Shown here piece by piece: positions 1 to 60,160 of a DNA stretch of 64,000 nucleotides (the first letter of the stretch is position 1; every line of letters begins with the position of its first letter). The notes below the pieces were generated by a model. It was not told the DNA's origin. It did not search any database and saw only the letters and a list, made by a program, of their open reading frames with translations. Source of the DNA: Heptranchias perlo (taxonomy: Eukaryota); the NCBI RefSeq assembly GCF_035084215.1, contig NC_090352.1:5642001-5706000 (forward strand), read 5' to 3'. A program made the translations under genes and the position numbers.

Positions 1-392
1 CTAGGAAGTCAATTCCCCAATATACCTGGCTGATAAATGGAACTCCCAGCCACTGGCCTGCTCTTGTCAAATCGGCCCTTAAATTGAATCTAACATTCAT
101 CTCCTCAGGTAAAATGTAACTCTGACGAGGGAAAACTAGAACTCCCTCGTGAGTTCTCTCGAGGTGTGAAGCACCACAGCCCAAGAAAGTTCCTTCGTTC
201 TCTAAAACACATATGCAAGACGTCTTACAATGTATCGCTGTTATGGCACCATCTAGTAATCTTCAGAGGCCATAAAATCCTTGGGAATCAGCCAAATCCA
301 TCAGACTTTGGGCACATAATGAACTTTCAACTTATCATCAGTGTCTGGAACAAATAGCCAATTGCTTGTAATTACGGAGTAGTTAAAACATT

Positions 393-10850: not shown

Positions 10851-13581
10851 ATAGAATCATAGAATCATAGAAGTTACAACATGGAAACAGGCCTTCGGCC
10901 CAACATGTCCATGTCGCCCAGTTTATACCACTAAGCTAGTCCCAATTGCCTGCACTTGGCCCATATCCCTCTATACCCATCTTACCCATGTAACTGTCCA
11001 AATGCTTTTTAAAAGACAAAATTGTACCCGCCTCTACTACTGCCTCTGGCAGCTCGTTCCAGACACTCACCACCCTTTGAGTGAAAAAATTGCCCCTCTG
11101 GACCCTTTTGTATCTCTCCCCTCTCACCTTAAATCTGTGCCCCCTCGTTATAGACTCCCCTACCTTTGGGAAAAGATTTTGACTATCGACCTTATCTATG
11201 CCCCTCATTATTTTATAGACTTCTATAAGATCACCCCTTAACCTCCTACTCTCCAGGGAAAAAAGTCCCAGTCTGTCTAACCTCTCCCTGTAAGTCAAAC
11301 CATCAAGTCCCGGTAGCATCCTAGTAAATCTTTTCTGCACTCTTTCTAGTTTAATAATATCCTTTCTATAATAGGGTGACCAGAACTGTACACAGTACTC
11401 CAAGTGTGGCCTCACCAATGCCCTGTACAACTTCAACAAGACATCCCAACTCCTGCATTCAATGTTCTGACCATTGAAACCAAGCATGCTGAATGCCTTC
11501 TTCACCACCCTATCCACCTGTGACTCCACTTTCAAGGAGCTATGAATCTGTACTCCCAGATCTCTTTGTTCTATAACTCTCCCCAACGCCCTACCATTAA
11601 CGGAGTAGGTCCTGGCCCGATTCGATCTACCAAAATGCATCACCTCACATTTATCTAAATTAAACTCCATCTGCCATTCATCGGCCCACTGGCCCAATTG
11701 ATCAAGATCCCGTTGCAATCCTAGATAACCTTCTTCACTGTCCACAATGCCACCAATCTTGGTGTCATCTGCAAACTTACTAACCATGCCTCCTAAATTC
11801 TCATCCAAATCATTAATATAAATAACAAATAACAGCGGACCCAGCACCGATCCCTGAGGCACACCGCTGGACACAGGCATCCAGTTTGAAAAACAACCCT
11901 CTACAACCACCCTCTGTTTTCTGTCGTCAAGCCAATTTTGTATCCAATTGGCTACCTCACCTTGGATCCCATGAGATTTAACCTTATGTAACAACCTACC
12001 ATGCGGTACCTTGTCAAATGCTTTGCTGAAGTCCATGTAGACCACGTCTACTGCACAGCCCTCATCTATCTTCATGGTTACCCCTTCAAAAAACTTAATC
12101 AAATTCGTGAGACATGATTTTCCTCTCACAAAACCATGCTGACTGTTCCTAATTAGTCCCTGCCTCTCCAAATGCCTGTAGATCCTGTCCCTCAGAATAC
12201 CCTCTAACAACTTACCCACTACAGATGTCAGGCTCACTGGTCTGTAGTTCCCAGGCTTTTCCCTGCCGCCCTTCTTAAACAAAGGCACAACATTTGCTAC
12301 CCTCCAATCTTCAGGCACCTCACCTGTAGCGGTGGATGATTCAAATATCTCTGCTAGGGGACCCGCAATTTCCTCCCTAACCTCCCATAACGTCCTGGGA
12401 TACATTTCATCAGGTCCCGGAGATTTATCTACCTTGATGCGCGTTAAGACTTCCAGCACCTCCCTCTCTGTAATATGTACACTCCTCAAGACATCACTAT
12501 TTATTTCCCCAAGTTCCCTAACATCCATGCCTTTCTCAACCGTAAATACCGATGTGAAATATTCATTCAGGATCTCACCCATCTCTTGTGGTTCCGCACA
12601 TAGATGACCTTGTTGATCCTTAAGAGGCCCTACTCTCTCCCTAGTTACCCTTTTGCCCTTTATGTATTTGTAGAAGCTCTTTGGATTCACCTTTGCCTGA
12701 TCTGCCAAAGCAATCTCATATCCCCTTTTTGCCCTCCTGATTTCTCTCTTAACTCTACTCCGGCAATCTCTATACTCTTCAAGGGATCCACTTGATCCCA
12801 GCTGCCTATGCATGTCATATGCCTCCTTCTTCTTTTTGACTAGTGCCTCAATCTCCCGAGTCATCCAAGGTTCCCTACTTCTACCAGCCTTGCCCTTCAC
12901 TTTATAAGGAATGTGCTTACCCTGAACCCTGGTTAACACACTTTTGAAAGCCTCCCACTTACCAGACGTCCCTTTGCCTGCCAACAGACTCTCCCAATCA
13001 ACTTCTGAAAGTTCCTGTCTAATACCATCAAAATTGGCCTTTCCCCAATTTAGAATTTTAACTTTTGGGCCAGACCTATCCTTCTCCATAGCTATCTTAA
13101 AACTAATGGAATTATGATCACTGGTCCCAAAGTGATCCCTCACTAACACTTCTGTCACCTGCCCTTCCTTATTTCCCAAGAGGAGGTCAAGTTTTGCCCC
13201 CTCTCTAGTCGGGCCATCCACATACTGAATGAGAAATTCCTCCTGAATACACTCAACAAATTTCTCTCCATCCAAGCCCCTAATGCTATGGCTGTCCCAG
13301 TCAATGTTGGGAAAGTTAAAGTCCCCTACTATTACCACCCTATTTTTCTTGCAGCTGTCTGTAATCTCCTTACATATTTGCTCCTCAATTTCCCGTTGAC
13401 TATTTGGGGGTCTGTAGTACAATCCTATCAAAGTGATCTCTCCCTTCTTATTTTTCAGTTCTACCCATATAGACTCAGTGGGCGAACCCTCGGATATATC
13501 CCCTCTCACTACTGCCGTGATGTTCTCCCTAATCAAGAACGCAACTCCCCCTCCTCTCTTACCTCCTGCTCTATCTTTCCT
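10851..13581 (-). mobile_element. Young 5'-truncated CR1 LINE
   Basis: Uninterrupted ORF2, short 3'UTR and (CTATGATT)n tail, seen as ATAGAATCATAGAATCATAG at 10851; truncated within the endonuclease. Confidence 0.97.
10936..13536 (-). CDS. CR1 ORF2 (partial APE endonuclease + reverse transcriptase), N-terminally truncated, 866 aa open
   Basis: APE motifs YYRPP, GDFN and SDHN; RT motifs [28 protein letters not shown] and FADD; C-terminal FFTQRVV.WN.LP. Confidence 0.95.
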   Translation of the reverse strand: MIRENITAVVRGDISEGSPTESIWVELKNKKGEITLIGLYYRPPNSQREIEEQICKEITDSCKKNRVVIVGDFNFPNIDWDSHSIRGLDGEKFVECIQEEFLIQYVDGPTREGAKLDLLLGNKEGQVTEVLVRDHFGTSDHNSISFKIAMEKDRSGPKVKILNWGKANFDGIRQELSEVDWESLLAGKGTSGKWEAFKSVLTRVQGKHIPYKVKGKAGRSREPWMTREIEALVKKKKEAYDMHRQLGSSGSLEEYRDCRSRVKREIRRAKRGYEIALADQAKVNPKSFYKYIKGKRVTRERVGPLKDQQGHLCAEPQEMGEILNEYFTSVFTVEKGMDVRELGEINSDVLRSVHITEREVLEVLTRIKVDKSPGPDEMYPRTLWEVREEIAGPLAEIFESSTATGEVPEDWRVANVVPLFKKGGREKPGNYRPVSLTSVVGKLLEGILRDRIYRHLERQGLIRNSQHGFVRGKSCLTNLIKFFEGVTMKIDEGCAVDVVYMDFSKAFDKVPHGRLLHKVKSHGIQGEVANWIQNWLDDRKQRVVVEGCFSNWMPVSSGVPQGSVLGPLLFVIYINDLDENLGGMVSKFADDTKIGGIVDSEEGYLGLQRDLDQLGQWADEWQMEFNLDKCEVMHFGRSNRARTYSVNGRALGRVIEQRDLGVQIHSSLKVESQVDRVVKKAFSMLGFNGQNIECRSWDVLLKLYRALVRPHLEYCVQFWSPYYRKDIIKLERVQKRFTRMLPGLDGLTYRERLDRLGLFSLESRRLRGDLIEVYKIMRGIDKVDSQNLFPKVGESITRGHRFKVRGERYKRVQRGNFFTQRVVSVWNELPEAVVEAGTILSFKKHLDSYMGKMGIEGYGPSAGNWD

Positions 13582-14816: not shown

Positions 14817-16937
14817 GAATCATAGAATCATAGAAAGGTTACAGCACGGAAGGAGGCAATTCAGCCCATCGAGTCCACGCCGGGTCTATGCACCAGCAAT
14901 CCAGCTAGTCCCATTCTCCCGGCCTATCCCAGTAGCCCTGCAAATTTTTTTGTTTCAAGTACTTATCCAGTTCCCTTTTGAAGACCATGATTGAATCTGC
15001 CTCCACCACCCCCTCAGGCAGTGCATTCCAGATCCTAACCACTCGCTGTGTAAAAAAGTTTTTCCTCATATCACCTTTGGTTCTTTTGCCAATCACCTTA
15101 AATCTATGTCCTCTGGTTCTTGATCCTTCCGCCAATGGGAACAGTTTCTCTCTATCTACTCTGTCTAGATCCTTCATGATTTTGAATACCTCTATCAAAT
15201 CTCGTCTCAACTTCTCTGTTTCAAGGAGAACAACCCCAGCTTCTCCAGTCTAACCACGTAATTTAAATCCCTCATCCCTGAAATCATTCTAGTAAATCTC
15301 CTCTGCACCCTCTCCAAGGTCTTCACATCATTCCTAAAGTTGGGTGCCCAGAGCTGGACACAATACTCCAGTTGTATATATATGACTTATGTTCATGTTA
15401 TGTTCATCATGACTTCCTTGCTTTTGTACTCTATGCCTCTATTTATAAAGCCCAGGACCCCATATGCTTTTTTAACCGCTTTCTCAACCTGTCCTGCTAC
15501 CTTCAACGATTTGTGCACGTATACCCCCAGATCTCTGTTTCTCTACTCCTTTTAGAACTGTGCCCTCTAGTTTATATTGCCTCGCCTCATTTTTCCTACC
15601 GAAATGCATTACCTCGCATTTTTTCGCCACGTGTCCTTCATCTGTCAAGTGTCCGCCCATTTCCACCCGCGTGTCTGTTGAAGTCTATCACTATCCTCCT
15701 CACTGTTCACTACCCTTCCAAGTTTTGTGTCATCTGCAAATTTGGAAATTGTGCCCTATACTGCCAAGTCCAAGTCATTAATATATATCAAGAAAAGCAT
15801 TGGTCCCAGCACCGACCCCTGAGGAACACCACTGCACATCTCCCTCAAGTCCGAAAAACAACCGTTCACCACTACTCTGTTTCCTATCATTTAGCCAATT
15901 CTGTATCCATGTTGCTACTGGCCCCTTTATTCCATGGGCCGCAATCTTAATAGCAAGCCAACCATGTGGCACTTTATCAAATGCTTCTTGAAAATCCATA
16001 CACTCCACATCAACTGCATTGCTCTCATCTACCCTCTCTGTTACCTCATCAAAAAACTTTATCAAGTTGGTTAAACATGATTTGCCTTCAACAAATCCGT
16101 GCTGGGTTACCCTAATCAATCCACACTCGTCCAAGCCACTGTTAATTCTGTTCCGGATTATTGTTTCCAAAGGTTTCCCCACCACCGAGGTTAAACTGAC
16201 TGGCCTATAATTGCTGGGTTTATCCTTACACCCTGTTTTGAACAAGGGTGTAACATTTGCAATTCTCCAGTCCTCTGGCACCACCCCATACCAAAGGATG
16301 TTTGGAAGATTATGGGCAGTACCTCTGCAATTTCCACCCTTACTTCCCTCAGCAACCTAGTATGCATCCCATCCGGACCGGATGACTTATCTACTTTAAT
16401 ACAGCCAGCCTTTCTAGTACCTCTTCTTTCTCAATTTTTAGCCCATCCAGTATCTTAACTATATCTTTCTTTACCAAGACTCTGGCAGCATGTTCTTCCT
16501 TGGTAAAGACCAATGCAAAGTACTCATTTAGTACCTCAGCCATGCCCACTGCCTCCATGAGTAGATCTCCTTATGGCCCCTAATCGGCCCCACCCCTCCT
16601 CTTACTACCCCTTTACTGTTAACATGTCTGTAGAAGACTTTTGGATTCCCTTTTATGTTGTCCGCTAGTCTATTCTCATACTCTCTCTTTGCCCCTCTTA
16701 TTTCTTTTTTCACTTCCCCTCTGAACTTTCTATATTCAGCCTGGTTCTCACTTGTGTCATCAACTTGACACCTGTCATATGTCCCTTTTTTCCGCTTCAT
16801 CTTACTCACTATCTCTTTTGTCATCCAGGGAGCTCTGGCTTTAGTTGTTCTGCCTTTCTCCCTCGTGGGAATGTGCCTTGACTGTACCCGAACCATCTCC
16901 TCCTTAAAGGCCGCCCATTGTTCAATTACAGTTTTGA
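14817..16937 (-). mobile_element. Degenerate 5'-truncated CR1 LINE
   Basis: Frameshifted ORF2 pieces at 16528-16896, 15778-16284 and 14905-15210, homologous to 10936-13536; GAATCATA tail at 14817. Confidence 0.95.
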
Positions 16938-17340: not shown

Positions 17341-18111
17341 CAATAGCATTATATTTGGCATGCACCTGACACAGGTAGGAATGCAAGGAAGTCATCCCTG
17401 ATCAACTTATATAATGTTTCTGATGAACCAACCAGTGAGGTTAACCAGTGCAGCATTGGTGTGAGGGAATCAGGTCAGTGAGTGCTTAGCACGAATGGGG
17501 ATGCTTCTACATGAGATGGTCACAACTAGGAAGTACACGCTCCACCCTGAGTGCCCAGCCACAGCTCCTAAAGGGGTTTCACTTGAGGAATGTTCAAAAG
17601 TCAATTTATAACAGACGGTGCGGTCTCGAAGCATGACATTGACTATTACATGTCGTTGAAATATCTCAATATTATTGTTCTGCATCCAGGGCAAGGTGGC
17701 ATTTAATCTGCAAGTGCAAACCCATATAAGGTGGTGGACCTAAGCAATTCAAGCCCCTCACCCCATTTTAGGAGACTAATCGTGACATTGTTGGGTTGGA
17801 GAGCATTGAGGAACTGAAGGATCTTCAGGTCTGAGGCTTTGCCCCAAACTCATGGCTAGTTCTACAATGTTCGTATCATGTAGGGGTAATTTCGCCAATT
17901 TTCCAATGAGGAAGCATAGTTTGGACAATTGGATCTACAGCTTCAAGCATAACTCTCCGTTAGGACTATGGGATCAATGAATTAAAAAAAGAAATTGCAT
18001 TTATCGAGTGTTTTTTCACATACTCAGGACCTTCCAAAGCATTTCACAGCCAATGGATTACATTTGAAGTGTATCACTTCAGTACCAGTCCATCACCGGC
18101 ATCTCCACATC

Positions 18112-20820
18112 ATGACTACCATCGACACCAGAAACTGCCGGCTCACAGTGGAAAGGATATCCAAGAAGATCGCGCATTTAGACACAGACATCAAGTTTTT
18201 ACAGAGCTGCAAGAAAGCAGACAAGATCCCGAAAGGACTCCAGATCACGAACCCACTCAGGTCCACATAGAACTCGGATTACGCTGAGAGACTCTGCCGC
18301 CGTACCTCTCGCACACTCCGCAACCATCTCATACACCAACTCTACAGCAGACGCCACAACCTCGAAACCAAGATAGAGTCCATACTCTCAACCTGTACTC
18401 AGGACACAGCAGACCAGCTACGTTATACCGCCAAACAGACGAGGCAACGGAACTACGCTGCCAACATGAAAACCAAGAGCAGAAAGCTTGAGAAACTCGG
18501 CATCACCACTAGCATCGACCAAGCTTCCCCTGGTACCACGGTTGCAACCACAGGGAAGTCTATTGTCAATTTGTCCGACCACACCCTTCAACCAGACGAA
18601 ATCGAAGTTCTCAGCCGAGGGCTCAATTTCTGCTCCACTACCAAAATGGACCCCACTAGTCTTGCGGCGGACGCAGAGGAATTCCTCAGGAGAATGAGGC
18701 TCCGGGAATTCTACCACAAACCCCAAGATTTCAGCAGCGAACCCAATGAGACAATCGACGATCCGGAACAGCAGACAGAGGGATCCGCGGTACAGCAACC
18801 GAAGAGGAAAGAGTCAAACTGGACTCCTCCGGAGGGTCGCTGCCCTCAGCTGGACATGTATGCTCAAGCTGTCAGGAAATGCGTCAATGCCAGATTCATC
18901 AGCCGCACTCAGAAGACAGTCCAGAATGTCACCCGAGCACAACGCAACGCCATCAACGCTCTCAAGACCACCCGCAACATCGTCATCAAACCAGCGGACA
19001 AAGGAAGAGCCATAGTCATACAGAACAGAACGGACTATTGCAAAGGAGCATACCGACAACTGGACAACCAGGAACACTACAGACAGTTACCCGCAGATCC
19101 GACCAAAGAACACACCCACCAGCTCAACAAACTGATCAAGACCTTCGATCCAGACCTTCAAAGCATCCTACGCACTCTCATCCCACGTACTCCCCGCGTG
19201 GGAGACTTCTACTGCCTCCCAAAGATACACAAAGCCAACACACCCGGACGTCCTATCGTATCAGGCAATGGAACCCTGTGTGAGAACCTCTCTGGATACA
19301 TCGAGGGCATCCTGAAACCCATCGTACAGGGAACCCCCAGCTTCTGTCGCGACACTACAGACTTCCTACAAAAACTCAGTACCCACGGACCAGTTGAACC
19401 AGGAACACTTCTCACCACGATGGACGTCTCGGCACTATACACCAGTATCCCCCACGATGACGGCATCGCTACGACAGCATCAATACTCAACACCAACAAC
19501 AGCCAATCTCCGGACGCCATCCTACAACTCATCCGCTTCATCCTGGATCACAATGTCTTCACCTTCGATAACCAGTTCTTTACCCAAACACACGGAACAG
19601 CCATGGGGACCAAATTCGCACCCCAATATGCCAACATTTTCATGCATAAGTTCGAGCAGGACTTCTTCACTGCACAAGACCTCCAACCAACACTATACAC
19701 CAGATACATCGACGACATTTTCTTTCTATGGACCCACGGCAAGGAATCACTAAAGAGACTACACGATAACATCAACAAGTTCCATCCCACCATCAAGCTC
19801 ACCATGGACTACTCCTCAGAATCAGTTTCTTTCTTGGACACACGAATCTCCATCAAAGACGGGCACCTCAGCACCTCACTCTACCGCAAGCCCACGGACA
19901 ACCTCACGATGCTCCACTTTTCCAGCTTCCACCCTAACCACGTCAAAGAGGCCATCCCCTATGGACAGGCCCTGCGAATACACAGGGTCTGCTCAGACGA
20001 GGAGGAACGCGATGGACACCTACAGACGCTGAAAGACGCCCTAGTAAGAACGGGATATGACGCTCGACTCATCGATCGACAGTTCCGACGGGCCACAGCA
20101 AAAAATCGCATAGACCTCCTCAGGAGACTAACACGGGACGCAACCAACAGAGTACCCTTTGTCGTCCAGTACTTCCCCGGAGCGGAGAAACTACGCCATG
20201 TTCTCCGCAGCCTTCAACATGTCATCAATGAGGACAAACACCTCGCTATGGCCATCCCCACACCTCCACTACTCGCCTTTAAACAGCCACCCAACCTCAA
20301 ACAGACCATCGTTCGCAGCAAATTACCTAGCTTTCAAGAGAACAGCGTCCACGACACCACACAACCCTGCCACGGTAACCTCTGCAAGACATGCCAGATC
20401 ATCGACACAGATACCACCATCACACGAGAGGACACCACCCACCAGGTGCATGGTTCATACTCCTGTGACTCGGCCAACGTTGTCTACCTCATACGTTGCA
20501 GGAAAGGATGCCCCAGAGCATGGTACATTGGCGAGACCATGCAGACGCTGCGACAACGGATGAACGGACACCGCGCAACAATCGCCAAACAGGAGGGTTC
20601 CCTCCCAGTCGGGGAACACTTCAGCAGTCATGGACATTCATCCACCGACCTTCAGGTAAGCGTACTCCAAGGCGGCCTTCGAGACACACGACAACGCAAA
20701 ATCGTCGAGCAGAAATTGATAGCCAAGTTCCGCACCCATGAGGACGGCCTCAACCGGGATCTTGGGTTCATGTCACACTACACGTTACCCCACCAGCGAA
20801 CAAATGTTATCTGTTTTTAA
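18112..20820 (+). pseudogene. PLE polyprotein (RT + Cys-rich linker + GIY-YIG endonuclease) with one in-frame TAG at 18268-18270; 784 aa remain open from 18466
   Basis: IKPADKG, YCLPKIHK, MDVSALYTSI, GTAMG, RYIDDIF, LYRKPT; C-x4-C-x2-C linker (CHGNLCKTC); VVYLIRC...YIGET...R..GH; the upstream ORF from ATG 18112 is in the same frame as 18466. Confidence 0.93.
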
Positions 20821-20952
20821 TATAATGGGTCAGTTGCTGTCTTTTCTATGTTTCTACCTCTCTATCTCTGTTTTTTTTTGTTTGTTGTTTTTTTTTGGTG
20901 ATTTGTATATTCTGTGAGACCTGGCAGGTAACACCTGTCTGTCTGCACACTG

Positions 20953-21048
20953 ATTGCCTTGGCAACGGGCAGTTGAAAAAACTGTCTGTAATCACCAAGC
21001 ATTGTTCTGTGAATTATAAATGCGATTTCATTTCGAGGATTTCATTTT
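20953..21048 (+). promoter_or_regulatory. Putative PLE pLTR promoter: X-box-like ATTGCCTTGGCAAC (20953-20966), TATAAA (21015-21020), Inr-like TTCATTTT (21041-21048)
   Basis: TATA-to-A21044 spacing is 29 nt; the related fragment at 54150 starts at the position equivalent to A21044. Confidence 0.55.
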
Positions 21049-21055
21049 CACATCG

Positions 21056-21094
21056 TTCACCTGACGAAGGAGGAAGCCTCCGAAAGCTTGTGAA
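21056..21094 (+). ncRNA. Minimal type I hammerhead ribozyme in the PLE pLTR
   Basis: TTCAC-CTGACGA-A-GGAGG aag CCTCC-GAAA-GC-TT-GTGAA: stem I, core, stem II and palindromic AAGCTT stem III. Confidence 0.85.
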
Positions 21095-22454
21095 TTTAAA
21101 ATAAAATTGCTGGACTATAACTTGGTGTTGTAAAATTGTTTACAATTTGAAGTGTAGTCATTGTTGATTTGTAGACAAATGTGGCAACTAATTTGCACAC
21201 AGCAAGGTCCCACAAATTGCAAATGAACAAATAATCAGATAATTTGTTTTTGGTGGTGCGTGAGAGGAGAATGTTGGTCAGGGCACTGAGATAACTCACT
21301 GCTCTTCTTTGGATCAGGCTAAGAGATTTTTATGTCACTTGTGAGAAGAGACAGGACCTTGGTTTAACATCTCATCCGAAAAATGGCACCTCTGGCAGTG
21401 CAGCACTCCCTCAGTACTGTACTGAAGTGTCAGCTTAGATTATGTGCCCAACTCCCTGGAATGGGGCTTCAACCCATGTAAATTCAGTGAATTTACAGTG
21501 TATTGTCATCTCACTGAGTGAGTACCACATGGGCAAACACTTAACTTGTGTAACATCACTGAGAGTGTCATGCGTTGAAAGCAGTGTTTGTAGTTGGTTA
21601 ATTCAAGCAGCGTTTTTGACATCTTGTTCTCTGTGCAATAGAAGAACATTGAAGTCACAGCCAGTGTTCCTGGCAGACCAGCACTTTACATTAGGGATGG
21701 GCAATAAATGCTGGCCTTGCCAGCGACGCCCACACCCCATGAATGAATTTTTAAAATCACAAACACCACCCCTACTAAACACAGTTACATATACCCTGGA
21801 AGGTAGTGAGATTGACAAGGAAGCACATGGTGAGAAACTGTACATAGGTCAAGAGGATCGAGTGGTGCTGGCTCCCCAAGCCTAGTCATCTGTTGGCCCA
21901 TGATGCAGTAAGTTTCTTGCCTCTGCCGCAACGCACAGGACCTGGTTACAAACTGAGTTTGTTGTCCAGGCAGGGTCATCAACATAAGTCACTGGAGTTG
22001 GTGCAACACACGCTGCAAGCTCTAGGGAGGAGTATGGATGAGTCCACTGCTTGACGCCTTGGCGGTGTTGGATGACTGCACTGGAGTCTGCTATGGAGCG
22101 TGTGGTGTCTGCAACGGCGCTCTTAGTGGCACAGAGAGAACATCGCTCAAGAGTGCTGTGGAGTCCCAGGGCTCTAAACTTAAATATGCTCTCTTGACAG
22201 CTTCAATGTGTCCAGAGATTGGATACAAGCAAACCCGAAGCAGGGATCCACAAACTGCATAGCTTCCCTGCGCTCTACTTTCAGTCAGACCAGTGGGCAT
22301 GTTGAGAGAGGCCCCAGCAATCAGACCACTGCAACACCTCCAGCCCACCAAGCACTCTTGCACAAGTGACATTAAAGGTGTCACAAAGCAGTCAGTGCCA
22401 GCCAGCCACAACAGCACCGGGCATGACTGGCGCAGATAGTTCTCATTGCACTGC

Positions 22455-25969: not shown

Positions 25970-27152
25970 TAGAGCTGAATTCCAGAGGTGAGGTGAGAGT
26001 GACTGCCCTTGACATCAAGGCAGCATTTGACCGAGTGTGGCAACAAGGAGCCCTAGCAAAATTGAAGTCAATGGGAATCAGGGGGAAAACTCTCCAGTGG
26101 CTGGAGTCATACCTAGCACAAAGGAAGATGGTTGTGGTTGTTGGAGGCCAATCATCTCAGCCCCAGGACATTACTGCAGGAGTTCCTCAGGGCAGTGTCC
26201 TAGGCCCAACCATCTTCAGCTGCTTCATCAATGACCTTCCCTCCATCATAAGGTCAGAAATGGGGATGTTTGCTGACGATTACACAGTGTCTGGTTTCAT
26301 TCGCAACCCCTCAGATAAAGAAGCAGTCCGAGCCCGCATGCAGCAAGACCTGGACAACATCTAGGCTTGGGCTAATAAGTAGCAAGTAATATTCACGCCA
26401 GACAAGTGCCAGGCAATGACCATCTCCAACAACAGAGAATCTAACCACCTCCCCTTGACATTCAACGGCATTACCTTTGCCGAATCCCCCACCATCAACA
26501 TCCTGGGGGTCACCATTGACCAGAAACTTAACTGGACCAGCCATATAAATACTGTGGCTACAAGAGCAGGTCAGAGGCTGGGTATTCTGCGGCGAGTGAC
26601 TCACCTCCTGACTCCCCAAAGCCTTTCCACCATCTACAAGGCACAAGTCAGGAGTGTGATGGAATACTCTCCACTTGCCTGGATAAGTGCAGCTCCAAGA
26701 ACATTCAAGAAGCTCGACACCATCCAGGACAAAGCAGCCCACTTGATTGGCACCCCATCCACCACCCTAAACATTCACTCCCTCCACCACCGACACACAG
26801 TGGCTGCAGCGTGTACCATCCACAGGATGCACTGCAGCAATTCGCCAAGGCTTCTTCGACAGCATCTCCAAAACCCACGACCTCTACCACCTAGAAGGAC
26901 AAGGGCAGCAGGCACATGGGAACAATAAATCACACACCATCCCGACTTGGAAATATATCGCCATTCCTTCATCGTCGCTGGGTCAAAATCCTGGAACCCC
27001 CGACTAATAGCACTGTGGGAGAACCTTCACCACACGGACTGCAGCGGTTTAAGAAGGCGGCTCACCACCACCTTCACAAGGGCAATTAGAGATGGGCAAT
27101 AAATGCTGGCCTTGCCAGTGAGGCCCACATCCCATGAACGAATCAAAAAAAA
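25970..27152 (+). mobile_element. 5'-truncated non-LTR retrotransposon (CR1/Jockey-group RT, distinct from canonical CR1; family B), nested in the 3'UTR of a CR1-like element
   Basis: [36 protein letters not shown]; stop codons; tail GGGCAATAAATGCTGGCC...CCCATGAACGAATC(A)n; host sequence GCATGA|TACAATG is split with ATGA duplicated. Confidence 0.9.
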
Positions 27153-38714: not shown

Positions 38715-39633
38715 GGAAAATTGCCCAGGTATGTCCTGTCCACAAAAAGCAGGACAAATCCAATTACTGCCCTATCATTCTACTCTCAATCATCAGCAAA
38801 ATGATGGACGGTGTCGTCGACAGTGCTATCAAGCGGCACTTACTCACCAATAACCTGCTCACCGATGCTCAGTTTGGGTTCCGCCAGGACCACTCGGCTC
38901 CAGACCTCATTACAGCCTTGGTCCAAACATGGACAAAAGAGCTGAATTCCAGAGGTGAGGTGAGAGTGACTGCCCTTGACATCAAGGCAGCATTTGACCG
39001 AGTGTGGCACCAAGGAGCCCTAGTAAAATTGAAGTCAATGGGAATCAGGGGGAAAGCTCTCCAGTAGCTGGAGTCATAACTAGCACAAAGGAAGATGGTA
39101 GTGGTTGTTGGAGGCCAATCATCTCAGCCCCAGGACATTGCTGCAGGAGTTCCTCAGGGCAGTGTCCTAGGCCCAACCATCTTCAGCTGCTTCATCAATG
39201 ACCTTCCCTCCATCATAAGGTCAGAAATGGGGATGTTCGCTGATGATTGCACAGTGTTCAGTTCCATTCACAACCCCTCAGATAATGAAGCAGTCCGTGC
39301 CCGCATGCAGCAAGACCTGGACAACATCCAGGCTTGGGCTGATAAGTGGCAAGTAACATTCGCGCCAGATAAGTGCCAGGCAATGACCATCTCCAAAAAG
39401 AGAGAGTCTAACCACCTCTCCTTGACATTCAACGGCATTACCATCGCCGAATCCCCCACCATCAACATCCTGGGGGTCACCATTGACCAGAAATTTAACT
39501 GGACCAGCCATATAAATACTGTGGCTACAAGAGCAGGTCAGAGGCTGGGTATTCTGCGGCAAGTGACTCACCTCCTGACTCCCCAAAGCCTTTCCGCCAT
39601 CTACAAGGCACAAGTCAGGAGCGTGATGGAATA
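38715..39633 (+). mobile_element. Internal RT fragment of family B non-LTR element
   Basis: PVHKK, QFGFR, LDIKAAFDRVWH, FADD; highly similar to 25970-26665; lacks the 3' tail. Confidence 0.9.
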
Positions 39634-41811: not shown

Positions 41812-42765
41812 GGACTTAAATATAGGGGGCATGATTAAGAAATTTGCGGATGACACAAAGATAGGCCGTGTGGTTGATAGTGAGGAGGAAAGCTGTAGAC
41901 TACAGGAAGATATCAATGAGCTGGTCAGGTGGGCAGAAAAGTGGCAAATGGAGTTCAATCCGGAGAAGTGTGAGGTAATGCATTTAGGGAGAGCAAACAA
42001 GGCAAGGGAATACACAATAAATGGGAGGATACTGAGAGGTGCAGAGGAAGTGAGGGACCTTGGAGTGCATGTCCACAGATCCCTGAAGGTAGCAGGACAG
42101 GTAGATAAGGTGGTTAAGAAGGCATATGGAATGCTTTCCTTTATTAGCCGAGGCATAGAATATAAAAGCAGGGATGTTATGCTGGAACTGTATAAAACAC
42201 TAGTTAGGCCACAGCTGGAGTACTGAGTAAAGTTCTGGTCACCACATTACAGGAGGGATGTAATTGCACTAGAGAGAGTACAGAGGAGGTTTACGAGGAT
42301 GTTGCCAGACTGGAGAATTTTAGCTATGATGACAGATTGGATAGGCTGGGGTTGTTTTCCTTGAAACAGAGGAGGCTGAGGGGTGATTTGATTGCGGTGT
42401 ACAAAATTATGAGGGGCCTAGGTGGAGTGGATAGGAAGGACCTATTTTCCGTAGTGGAGGGGTCAATAACCAGGGGGCATAGATTTAAAATAATTGGTAG
42501 AAGGATTAGAGCGGAAATGTGGAAAGAAATTTTCACCCAGAGGGTGGGGGTCTGGAACTTACTGCCTGAGGGTGGTAGAGGCAGAAACCCTCAGCTCATT
42601 TAAAAAACACCTGGATGTGCACCTGAAGAGCCGTGACCTGCAGGGCTATGGACCAAATGCGGGAAAGTGGGATTAGGCTGGGTGGCTCGTTTCTCAGCCG
42701 CATGGACACGATGGGCCGAAGGGCCTCCTTCTGGGCCATAAATTTTCTATGAGTCTATGATTCTA
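41812..42765 (+). mobile_element. 5'-truncated CR1 LINE
   Basis: KFADDTKIG...LVRPQLEY...FTQRV; tail TTCTATGAGTCTATGATTCTA. Confidence 0.93.
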
Positions 42766-43404
42766 ACACAGTAGATAGACATTGATAAATGTCTTCTGAT
42801 CCTACCATCCTGGCCTATTTGAAGGAATATTATTGTATAATTTGAAATAATATCCTGATATGTGCCTTCTCATTCATGGCAATCCAATTTTAAATTGTTT
42901 CACATACCCACTAAATCCTTCGTTGCACATTGTGATTACTAAGCAGCTCCCAGTGGGGCACTGAGGTCTAACTGATGTGAATCACTTATTTTTTGGAATT
43001 TGCCATCAAGGTGTTAAAGCCTATTGGACTTTGAGGCTTTGTGCTATAATTTTCAGTACCTGTGGTGTAAATGTCCAGTGAATTCATCATAGATTTTAAC
43101 ATTGTGCATTGAATGATGTAACAACCTAACAGTGACATTCAGAATATAATCTAAATTGAAAACATTATAAAGATTCTGAGTAGGAGCAATTTGTCTAGAC
43201 CTTTTATCATCTGAAGATGTTGAAGATAGCTGCATATTTCTGATGGGTCATTTGAACGCTGAATTGTAATTCATTTCAAATAGTTGAGAGAAATGGCTAG
43301 TTGAATGTTCTAGTATAGATTTTGTGTGGAAGGAAGTTTTGACTTGTATATTCATTGTCTGAATTTCTCAGGTATGTTGGGGTGAATATTTGTTTCTTAA
43401 TATT

Positions 43405-53985: not shown

Positions 53986-54012
53986 GGAGAAAGACAACTA
54001 ACCCCGTGTGGT

Positions 54013-54150
54013 CATGATGTGGAGATGCCGGTGATGGACTGGGGTTGACAATTGTAAACAATTTTACAACACCAAGTTATAGTCCAGCAATTTTATTTTT
54101 AATCCCACAAGCTTTCGGGGACTTCCCCCTTCCTCAGGCGGTGTGGAAAT
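54013..54150 (-). mobile_element. 138-bp PLE leader insertion (hammerhead + pLTR tail + sequence up to the ORF ATG)
   Basis: Matches 21044-21146 and then 18085-18116; TSD CCGTGTGGT at 54004-54012 and 54151-54159. Confidence 0.88.
54105..54141 (-). ncRNA. Minimal hammerhead ribozyme (variant of 21056-21094)
   Basis: CCGC-CTGAGGA-A-GGGGG aag TCCCC-GAAA-GC-TT-GTGG. Confidence 0.8.
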
Positions 54151-54414
54151 CCGTGTGGTAGCAGTACAGTTTATGAATTAGCGTTCCCGGTAAGGAACCT
54201 TGCCTGATGGGAGGACAATTGATGCAGAAGTCAATGTGCTCAATTTGGAGATCCGTTAATCAGGCCTGCTAATCTCCTCATCCGATTATCCATTGTGGAA
54301 TCCTGTTGTGTGAGGGCCTGTGCCAGGGGCATTGACAGGTAATATTTACTGGATGCATTAAGCATGGTGTACCAGACTTTGAGACCCATGAAGGTGGCAT
54401 AAAGAAAAGAAGAA

Positions 54415-58128: not shown

Positions 58129-58316
58129 AATGGGTACGAAAAGGTTCCTCCCCTCCCACCCCCCAACCGATGTACGCCAGATACAGGTCTGTTAGGAATG
58201 CAGTGGAAGGGCCAGGAATTGAGCCAGCACACAGAAATTCTGGGTTTCAGTCCCCGCTCGAAGTTTCTGGGAGAGGGGCCTGTTTGGGGCAGAACCTCCA
58301 AACATGACCCTTGATT

Positions 58317-60160
58317 TAGAATCATAGAATCATAGAACATTTACGGCACAGAAGGAGGCCATTCTGTCCATCGTGTCCGTGCCGGCTGAAAATGAGCCTC
58401 CCAGCCTAATCCCACTTTCCAGCACTTGGTCCATAGCCCTGTAGGTTACAGCACTTCTGGTGCACATCCAGGTGCTTTTTAAATGAGCTGAGGGTTTCTG
58501 CCTCTACCACCCTTTCAGGCAGTGAGTTCCAGACCCCCACCACCTTCTGGGTGAAAAAATTCCTCCTCAGCTCCCCTCTAATCCTTCTACCAATTATTTT
58601 AAATCTATGCCTCCTGGTTATTGACCTCTCTGCTAAGGGAAATAGATCCTTCCTATCCACTCTATCTAGGCCCCTCATAATTTTGTATTCCTCAATTAAA
58701 TCACCTCTCAGCCTCCTCTGTTCCAAAGAAAACAACCCCAGACTATCCAATCGTTCCTCATAGCTAAAATTCTCCAGTCCTTGCAACATCCTCGTAAATC
58801 TCCTCTATACCCTCTCTAGCACAATTACATCCTTCCTGTAATGTGGTGACCAGAACTGTATACAGTACTCAAGCTGTGGCCTAACTAGTGTTTTATACAG
58901 TTCTAGCATAACCTCCCTGCTCCTATATTCTATGCCTTGGCTAATAAAGGAAAGTATTCCATATGCCTTCTTAACCACCTTATCTATCTGTCCTGCTACC
59001 TTCAGGGATCTGTGGACATGTACTCCAAGGTCCCTCACTTCCTCTACACCTTTCAGTATCCTCCCATTTATTGTGTACTCCCTTGCCTTGTTTGCCCTCC
59101 CCAAATGCATTACCTCACACTTCTCCGGATTGAATTCCATTTGCCACTTTTCTGCCCACCTGACCAGTCCATTGATATCTTCCTGCAGTCTACAGTTTTC
59201 CTCCTCACTATCAACCACATGGCCAATTTTTGTATCATCTGCAAACTTCTTAATCATGCCCCCTACATTTAAGTCCAAATCATTAATATATACCTCAAAA
59301 AGCAAGCGGCCTAGAATTGAGCCTTGCACTGGAAACAACCTCCCAGTCACAAAAACACCTGTTGACCGTTACCCTTTGCTTCCTGCCACTGAGCCAATTT
59401 TGGATCCGATTTGCCACTTTCCCATGGGCTTGTACTTTTTTGACCAGTCTGCCATGTGGGACCTTGTCAAAAGCCTTGCTAAAATCCATGTAGACTACAT
59501 CAAAAGAGCTACTCTCACTGACCCTCCTTGTTACCGCCTCAAAAAATTCAATCAAGTTAGTCAGACACAACCTTCCCTTAACAAATCCATGCTGACTGTC
59601 CTTGATTACTCCATGCCTTTCTAAGTGACGGTTTATCCTGTCCCTCAGAATTGATTCCAATAATTTGCCCACCACCGAGGTTAGACTGACTGGCCTGTAA
59701 TTACTCGGCCTATCCCTCGCTCCCTTTTTAAACAACGGTACAACATTAGCAGTTCTCCAATCTCCCGGCTCCACACCTGTATCCAGTGAGGATTAGAAAA
59801 TGATGGTCAGAGCCTTGGATATTTCCTCCCTTGCTTCTTTTAATAGACTGGGATACATTTCATCCGGGCCTGGTGATTTATCTACTTTCAAAGATGCTAA
59901 TCCCCTTAATACTTCCTCTCTCACTATATTTATTCCATCCAATATTTCACATTCCTCCTTCTTAACTACAATGTCTGCATCGCCCCTCTCTTTTGTGAAG
60001 TCAGATGCAAAGTATTCATTAAGAACCTTACCAACATCTTCCGCCTCCACACATAGGTTACCTTTTTGGTCTCTAATAGGCCCTACTCTTTCCCTAGTTA
60101 TCCTCTTGTTTTTACTTGCCAATATTTTTTCATGCCCTCTCTTTGCTTTCATATTTTCCG
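58317..60160 (-). mobile_element. 5'-truncated CR1 LINE, same subfamily as 41812-42765
   Basis: Frameshifted ORF2 pieces at 59793-60160, 59295-59774, 58805-59350 and 58406-58789; GAATCATA tail. Confidence 0.95.

Follow-up and report, generated by a model that had tools for sequence, protein, structure and literature searches.

A solo insertion of the 5′ leader of a Penelope-like element (PLE) lies on the minus strand of the window, by which we mean the entire 64,000-nucleotide stretch of Heptranchias perlo DNA that was analyzed (Table 1). We number the insert in element positions q1–q138, read on the minus strand from 54150 to 54013. Alignment and the identical 9-bp repeats at the two ends bear out an earlier note on this DNA, which had described a 138-bp, hammerhead-carrying insertion in this orientation flanked by a target-site duplication (TSD). 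By our own arithmetic, a 9-bp repeat would abut the two ends by chance with a probability of about 4^-9 per offset, and the flanking DNA is single-copy in the genome (3.25 Gb). Positions q1–101 align with window positions 21044–21147 (87.6% identity, E 5e-32), and q109–138 align with 18085–18114, the bases up to the ATG of a large element in the same window. The junction between pLTR and ORF that the insert was said to reconstruct is real, and it is also found at L002, L003, and L061. Two points of the earlier description need amendment. The leader does extend to the ATG of a PLE, but its source is not the large copy in the window: because the insert is identical at 136 of 138 positions to each of two loci elsewhere in the genome, L061 and L062 (2 differences to each), it represents the leader of a sister subfamily (B) rather than that of the window copy (A). 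Likewise, the ATG does belong to the insert, but the AC that follows is part of the target duplication, since the parents read ATG-GC.

Table 1. Features of the solo leader insertion and of the large PLE copy in the window
Feature	Position	Strand	Basis or comment
Solo insertion of PLE 5′ leader (predicted start site to ATG), subfamily B	54013-54150	-	138 bp
TSD copy, ATG (3′) side of insert	54004-54012	.	9 bp, identical to 54151-54159
TSD copy, 5′ side of insert	54151-54159	.	9 bp, identical to 54004-54012
First 3′-end cluster of the family (q96-104; pLTR end)	54047-54055	-	51 of 100 arms; putative first reverse-transcription start site
PLE tail, ~35 nt to ATG; second 3′-end cluster (q131-139)	54013-54046	-	42 of 100 arms; putative second start site
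Minimal type I hammerhead motif of insert (q10-46)	54105-54141	-	Manual core scan, variant table, folds
Near unit-length PLE copy, sister subfamily A	18085-21147	+	No upstream promoter; ends at first 3′ cluster
PLE ORF: reverse transcriptase, CX4CXXC linker, GIY-YIG-type nuclease	18112-20820	+	TAG at codon 53; RVT_1 E 1.8e-10
pLTR TATA box	21015-21020	+	29 nt upstream of 21044
Initiator-like motif, predicted +1 at 21044	21042-21048	+	Sequence; subfamily A 5′ ends cluster there
Minimal hammerhead of large copy, 6-bp stem I	21055-21095	+	Core scan, variant table, fold
TSD of large copy, left	18062-18073	.	12 bp; then 11 extra bases, 18074-18084
TSD of large copy, right	21145-21156	.	12 bp; 3-base overlap with element end

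At both L061 and L062, an unbroken ORF lies between two pLTRs. The predicted protein of L061 is 891 residues long, its frame being open from the ATG, and carries YIDD at residue 532, a CX4CXXC linker at residue 753, and a VVY...YIG nuclease motif at residue 790. The ORF of the parent family matches Pfam RVT_1 (E 1.9e-10); GIY-YIG was not matched in the Pfam search of this ORF, and the nuclease is assigned by its motif only. The family thus has the hallmarks of EN+ PLEs, namely a reverse transcriptase followed by a GIY-YIG-type nuclease (by motif) within a single ORF, partial-tandem pLTR-ORF-pLTR copies (L061, L062) together with inverted copies, and a 30–40-bp tail on one end. A CX2-5CXXC motif between reverse transcriptase and nuclease is a criterion for the Neptune/Nematis type (PMC8557442), and the parent linker, judged from the predicted protein, fits that type. 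The large copy in the window is 94.6% identical to L061 across 3,065 columns. It spans almost exactly one unit (start at q109, end at q101), which agrees with a tandem read-through RNA as its template. At L177 (G000:C1:4460972-4467159) and L161, full-length units are arrayed in tandem with a period of ~3,081–3,086 bp, and these loci are candidate origins of such RNA. Eleven additional bases separate the left duplication from the large copy, and the first eight of these approximate the reverse complement of the duplication.

The hammerhead motif in the insert consists of a 4-bp stem I, a CUGAGGA core, an extra A, a 5-bp stem II with one G-U pair, and GAAA, and a palindromic GC replaces stem III. 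The core covers q14–42, and cleavage is predicted to occur after q42. An Rfam scan of the window matched no hammerhead family. The core boxes, stems I and II, the helix III palindrome, and compensatory variation among 168 arms (individual leader copies) identify the motif as a PLE minimal hammerhead. In these arms, stem I has 4–6 bp paired and most classes keep five pairs in stem II, while the commonest B class (60 arms) has four pairs and a mismatch at the top. The hammerhead fold lies 4.1 kcal/mol above the best fold in the insert, 2.3 in the parent, and 0.9 in the large copy of the window, and the penalty in the insert results from a private change in stem II. Hammerheads of metazoan PLEs likewise have no real helix III, palindromic 15.2–16.2 positions, an extra base before stem II, and a G-C pair at the base of stem II, and they also occur as thousands of dispersed single motifs plus close opposite-strand pairs (PMC4209133). 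Nothing essential differs between the motif described here and the form given in the available part of that account.

The ends of leader copies were mapped in two samples, both drawn from the start of one chromosome. For subfamily B, an exact 24-mer from q33–56 has 3,684 matches in the genome, the first 100 of which (contig 1, 0–72 Mb) were mapped on L061; two of these arms (C1:61548192 and 61548553) have common flanks and are counted separately. The second sample is based on a 26-mer common to all subfamilies, with 65,442 exact matches. Its first 100 matches (0–4.9 Mb) were reduced to 87 arms when 13 flank duplicates were dropped, and their subfamily labels are approximate. Among the 100 B arms, 43 begin at q0–5, 24 at q6–33, and 33 further upstream. 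The most frequent starts are q2 (15 arms), q3 (11), and q1 (9), and the mode lies one base inside the predicted +1. The per-base loss rate is 0.120 at q0–5, 0.009 at q6–33, and at most 0.006 upstream, which places q0–5 at 13 to 150 times the neighboring intervals; the upstream rates include apparent ends at −138 to −146 that are alignment breaks at a T-rich tract and leave the spike unaffected. In the second sample, 23 of 87 arms begin at TATA+28..32. Genome-wide, subfamily A matches with a foreign upstream dinucleotide number 1,650 at initiator+1 versus 36 at a control position five bases upstream. When 20 stretches were checked, all 23 initiator+1 matches in them lacked promoter-side sequence and were true ends, many of them with extra T runs, which we attribute to untemplated A's or to slippage at the end of the cDNA.

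These counts bear on the simplest explanation, that the insert is an ordinary random 5′ truncation that happened to stop at its present 5′ end. Such truncation would account for the 33 longer B arms, whose ends are scattered down to about −1,900, and for the upstream continuation of 27 of the 29 best BLAST-type genome matches, a list that favors complete copies and was left out of the end statistics. For the class of short copies, however, the excess of ends at q0–5 and at initiator+1 refutes it. The single insert could still have arisen in this way, although we regard random truncation as scarcely credible overall. The expectation in the earlier note that the ends would be non-random was therefore borne out: 5′ ends are concentrated at the equivalent of position 21044, and 3′ ends fall at two fixed sites, as described below.

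The distance from the spike to the ribozyme core is −17 to −14 in subfamily A (10 of 37 arms), −13 to −11 in B (q1–3), and −10 to −8 in C (6 of 32 arms), whereas the overall 5′ boundary stays at about TATA+27..32 across subfamilies. Because the TATA spacing is nearly fixed among subfamilies whose core distances differ, the boundary follows the TATA box, and we infer that it corresponds to the transcription start. The initiator consensus is YYANWYY. The TATA-like box of subfamily B is degenerate and the initiator of subfamily C is weak. The base preceding 69 true q1 starts with a non-C base was tallied by hand for a cap-derived G and was A in 35, G in 22, and T in 12, a distribution with no clear sign of an added G. 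The pLTR is present in assembled contigs of sequencing runs, whose RNA status is a guess and which cannot show start, strand, or level.

A different view of this boundary is that RNA structure, or RNA trimming where the hammerhead helix begins, sets the 5′ end of copies that are still made from the autonomous element. In each subfamily, the predicted start does coincide with the 5′ margin of stem I (or of an outer extension of that stem), and the spikes in A, B, and C all match this margin. However, the distance from spike to TATA box is nearly fixed (27–32 nt) despite differing intervening sequence. Furthermore, a reverse transcriptase reaches the 3′ side of a helix first, and few ends are found on that side (4 of 87 arms at core+27..31). 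The leader folds are also no more stable than those of shuffled sequences (z −0.6 to −1.6, not significant). We therefore consider a structure-determined end unlikely, and transcription initiation is the preferred explanation for the boundary.

Ribozyme cleavage does not set the ends of the copies. None of the 87 arms begins at core+29 or +30. Genome-wide, 111 matches begin at the predicted cut site versus 44,963 that read through it, the former count coming from a filter that lets roughly one in two such ends through and the latter being the read-through total. The idea that self-cleavage makes template ends, raised in the available part of PMC4209133, finds no backing in the insertion ends of this family, which lie away from the cut site. 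On our best reading, the hammerhead rides along as a passenger near the 5′ end of the RNA.

The 3′ ends are concentrated at two sites ~35 nt apart, with 51 of the 100 B arms ending at q96–104, 42 at q131–139, and 7 elsewhere. This spacing matches the known 30–40-bp tail, a feature defined in PMC8557442 and PMC11167929, and the insert itself ends at the second site, with the tail. The stretch q57–138 (window 54013–54094) is almost invariant among subfamilies with differing promoters and ribozyme stems. It is predicted to fold into an extended stem-loop whose inner hairpin bears the first 3′ cluster (z not significant). The stretch is a candidate protein-binding site.

The 100 B arms represent 66 insertions, and 34 of these are head-to-head pairs, all but one of which (33 of 34) lie within a single 12–14-bp duplication. 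Exactly one arm carries the tail in 33 of the 34 pairs, and none has two tails (p 2e-9). The second sample follows the same rule in 21 of 22 pairs, the exception adjoining a tandem unit, for a combined count of 54 of 56. The two arms of a pair have the same haplotype in 31 of 34 cases, compared with 30% between insertions. In 18 of 33 pairs it is the tail-less arm that extends further 5′, in 10 it is the tail arm, and in 5 the two are equal; among long pairs, the tail-less arm is longer by 96–834 nt in 6 of 9. Long head-to-head pairs of the L012/L022 type (e.g., L022:638-1636, G000:C1:53071709-53074874) have junction gaps of −16 to 13 bases that lie far from the start site, and thus the paired anatomy is not restricted to short copies. 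Separately, independent insertions at G000:C1:8733215 and C1:57021190, and also at C1:9402377, 22508235, and 44111734, have an identical 12-bp duplication sequence because they hit the same position of another abundant repeat. This repeated landing position is a hint of target preference.

Self-priming or fold-back, perhaps with an antisense template, might instead produce the inverted pairs and leave solo copies as their remnants, and an antisense self-priming model has been proposed for rotifer PLEs (PMC3846280). The near-uniform haplotype within pairs and the palindromic nature of some junctions are in keeping with such a process. However, if a single cDNA folded back, its tail arm would have to extend 5′ no less than the partner arm does, and the opposite is seen in the 18 pairs noted above. 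Because the tail-less arm can be longer by hundreds of bases, each arm holds sequence absent from the other, and therefore simple fold-back of one cDNA cannot yield the pair. An antisense RNA would in turn need a terminus precisely at the sense initiator, and this in several subfamilies, and extra A/T runs are found on both arms at some junctions (L196, L199, L204). Given these observations, we judge self-priming or fold-back to be highly improbable, and favor separate copying of the two arms from RNA.

The earlier note had raised the possibility that the insert belongs to a discrete ribozyme-only family rather than being a random truncation. The non-random ends sustain the second half of this proposal, but shared haplotypes, the lack of an end at the cut site, and the near absence of dimers run counter to the first. 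In favor of a retrozyme-like, non-autonomous mini-element, transcribed from short copies and mobilized in trans, are the sharp ends, the target duplication, and the abundance of similar copies. Three of the 66 sampled insertions are solo copies with the same anatomy as the insert, from start to tail, and with duplications of 9–12 bp (a count that excludes C1:56906792, whose inverted partner lacks the exact pattern, as do the partners of other nominally solo arms). In addition, two head-to-tail dimers exist, one haplotype is confined to short arms (4 short, 0 long), and non-LTR retrozymes reportedly derive from PLE pLTRs (bioRxiv 10.64898/2026.07.22.740005).

Several findings nevertheless speak against a separate lineage. 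Short and long arms alike carry each of the five most frequent haplotypes (15/14, 6/4, 5/4, 6/3, and 6/1, respectively), as scored at low resolution on 43 short and 28 long arms at 5 variable columns, and the short-only haplotype reflects a single change at a CpG. Accordingly, this comparison revealed no SINE-like family with diagnostic changes absent from its partner. Short copies of this kind have formed in three or more subfamilies whose leaders differ. The private stem II variant of the insert has one other match in the genome, which lies in a long copy, leaving it without short relatives, and the short unit lacks the TATA box as well as the ORF. Tail-to-start junctions, searched genome-wide with patterns for subfamilies A and B, number three, comprising two true dimers and one spurious case, and no arrays of the A/B short unit were found genome-wide. 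Together with the scarcity of cut-site starts, these results mean that the mini-element reading is already largely refuted, and we consider it very unlikely. The insert probably belongs to a by-product class of the autonomous PLE, and the short copy is probably dead on arrival. The two dimers (L207:1390-1660 and L209:1390-1625) each contain two hammerheads ~140 nt apart, with a downstream unit that starts exactly at the predicted +1, and they are possibly template jumps that represent a minimal seed form of retrozymes.

Comparison with animal non-LTR retrozymes leads to a similar distinction. Like the insert, these are short and non-coding, carry a type I hammerhead, are related to PLE pLTRs, and have duplications of >4 bp (PMC7229834; bioRxiv 10.64898/2026.07.22.740005). 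In the available text of the same sources, retrozymes form tandem repeats of 150–450 bp, with a hammerhead in each unit, that are processed by the ribozyme to linear and circular monomers. In contrast, the leader copies described here are solo (as is the insert, at 138 bp) or inverted; they contain an intact ribozyme, and their ends lie off the cut site rather than being set by cleavage.

We propose that the insert is a solo leader copy that was made by an internal start of reverse transcription near the ATG and by run-off at the RNA 5′ end, i.e., at the predicted start, and we consider this origin probable. A transcript starting in the pLTR would carry two internal start sites, ~100 and ~136 nt from its own 5′ end. 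Because these sites are so near the 5′ end, the cDNA would run off after one leader length. The nuclease would nick both target strands, 12–14 nt apart, and each nick would prime one cDNA, one per internal site, with probably a single RNA, or else RNAs of one source locus, as template. Both cDNAs would run off the RNA 5′ end, often gaining extra A's, and joining of their ends head to head would create the one-tailed inverted pair. If a single cDNA survived, a solo copy with a somewhat shorter duplication would result, as in the insert. Long and partial-tandem copies would derive from read-through RNA of tandem units, which do exist (contig 1 near 4.46 Mb).

Support for parts of this scheme comes from in vitro work on the PLE protein of the green anole, which cleaves both target strands, extends them, and initiates reverse transcription at two internal sites delimiting the tail (PMC11167929). 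The anole start sites lie 111–118 nt inside the ORF and, in the available part of that report, showed no difference between strands. For this reason, the pairing of one site of each kind is something we infer for the present family. The 24 of 100 B arms that start in q6–33 would also require end trimming or template switching during joining.

A more specific form of the proposal draws on LTR elements, whose minus-strand strong-stop DNA is a short cDNA made by internal priming near the RNA 5′ end and run-off. By analogy, the leader copies may be programmed, strong-stop-like cDNAs: a protein dimer would prime both nicked strands at sites 35 nt apart on one RNA, run off at the capped 5′ end, and join the products into the class-defining one-tailed pair, while rare jumps from the 5′ end to another tail site would give tandem dimers and retrozyme seeds. 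Internal priming and run-off would be common to both systems, but the product here would be primed by target DNA and would stay in the genome, with neither a tRNA primer nor an integrase involved. We offer this version tentatively, as a possibility that we would not yet favor.

Much of the architecture of this family is already published. EN+ PLEs have been described with a pLTR that bears TATA and initiator-like motifs, heavy 5′ truncation, solo pLTRs, an adjacent inverted copy, a 30–40-bp tail often at one end only, and 8–10-bp duplications (PMC8557442, PMC3846280), and the insertions examined here share the same pLTR, truncation, inverted-copy, tail, and duplication architecture. What is added to it here are subfamilies with differing leader lengths, the cut-site count, and the two dimers. 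The available parts of these accounts treat truncation and tails qualitatively and favor nuclease resolution or antisense self-priming, whereas the present family exhibits a 5′ spike at the predicted start, one tail in nearly every pair, and arms that are not mutual copies. How inverted one-tailed PLE insertions form is an open question according to PMC8557442. Our literature search on PLE strong-stop products, promoters or starts, twin priming, and sharks, which covered the main texts of part of the literature, found no report of a 5′-end spike at the start site and no one-tail rule expressed as a count.

The closest functional parallel is Poseidon_Ac (PAc) of the green anole, which, like the family here, has two internal reverse-transcription start sites bounding the tail (PMC11167929). 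Hammerhead cleavage was unnecessary for PAc insertion in vitro, and no reads ending at the cut site are described in the available part of the report. PAc belongs to the Poseidon clade, and its ribozyme overlaps the ATG, with start sites inside the ORF as given above (PMC11167929). In contrast, the family examined here has a Neptune/Nematis-type linker, a ribozyme ~100 nt upstream of the ATG, and its second site at the ATG.

Although the single insertion at 54013–54150 is in itself ordinary, a family with 65,442 exact matches to one 26-mer constitutes a large natural record of PLE copying. As we read it, this record indicates that copies are templated mainly by the leader of the element itself, that RNA is the source of both arms, and that the ends are not determined by ribozyme cleavage. 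The same reading would explain why some genomes are full of thousands of solo or paired minimal hammerheads. It also serves as a warning to annotators that such copies are not to be labeled as separate SINEs, MITEs, or retrozymes.

The window contains other repeats as well. LINE-like fragments with long ORFs are located at 10936–13536, 15372–16284, 41812–42766, and 58316–59774, and the segments at 41812–42766 and 58316–59276 form an inverted pair that is 93% identical. A direct repeat of at least 300 bp with 98% identity is present at 25971–26270 and 38938–39237, with its two copies 13 kb apart.
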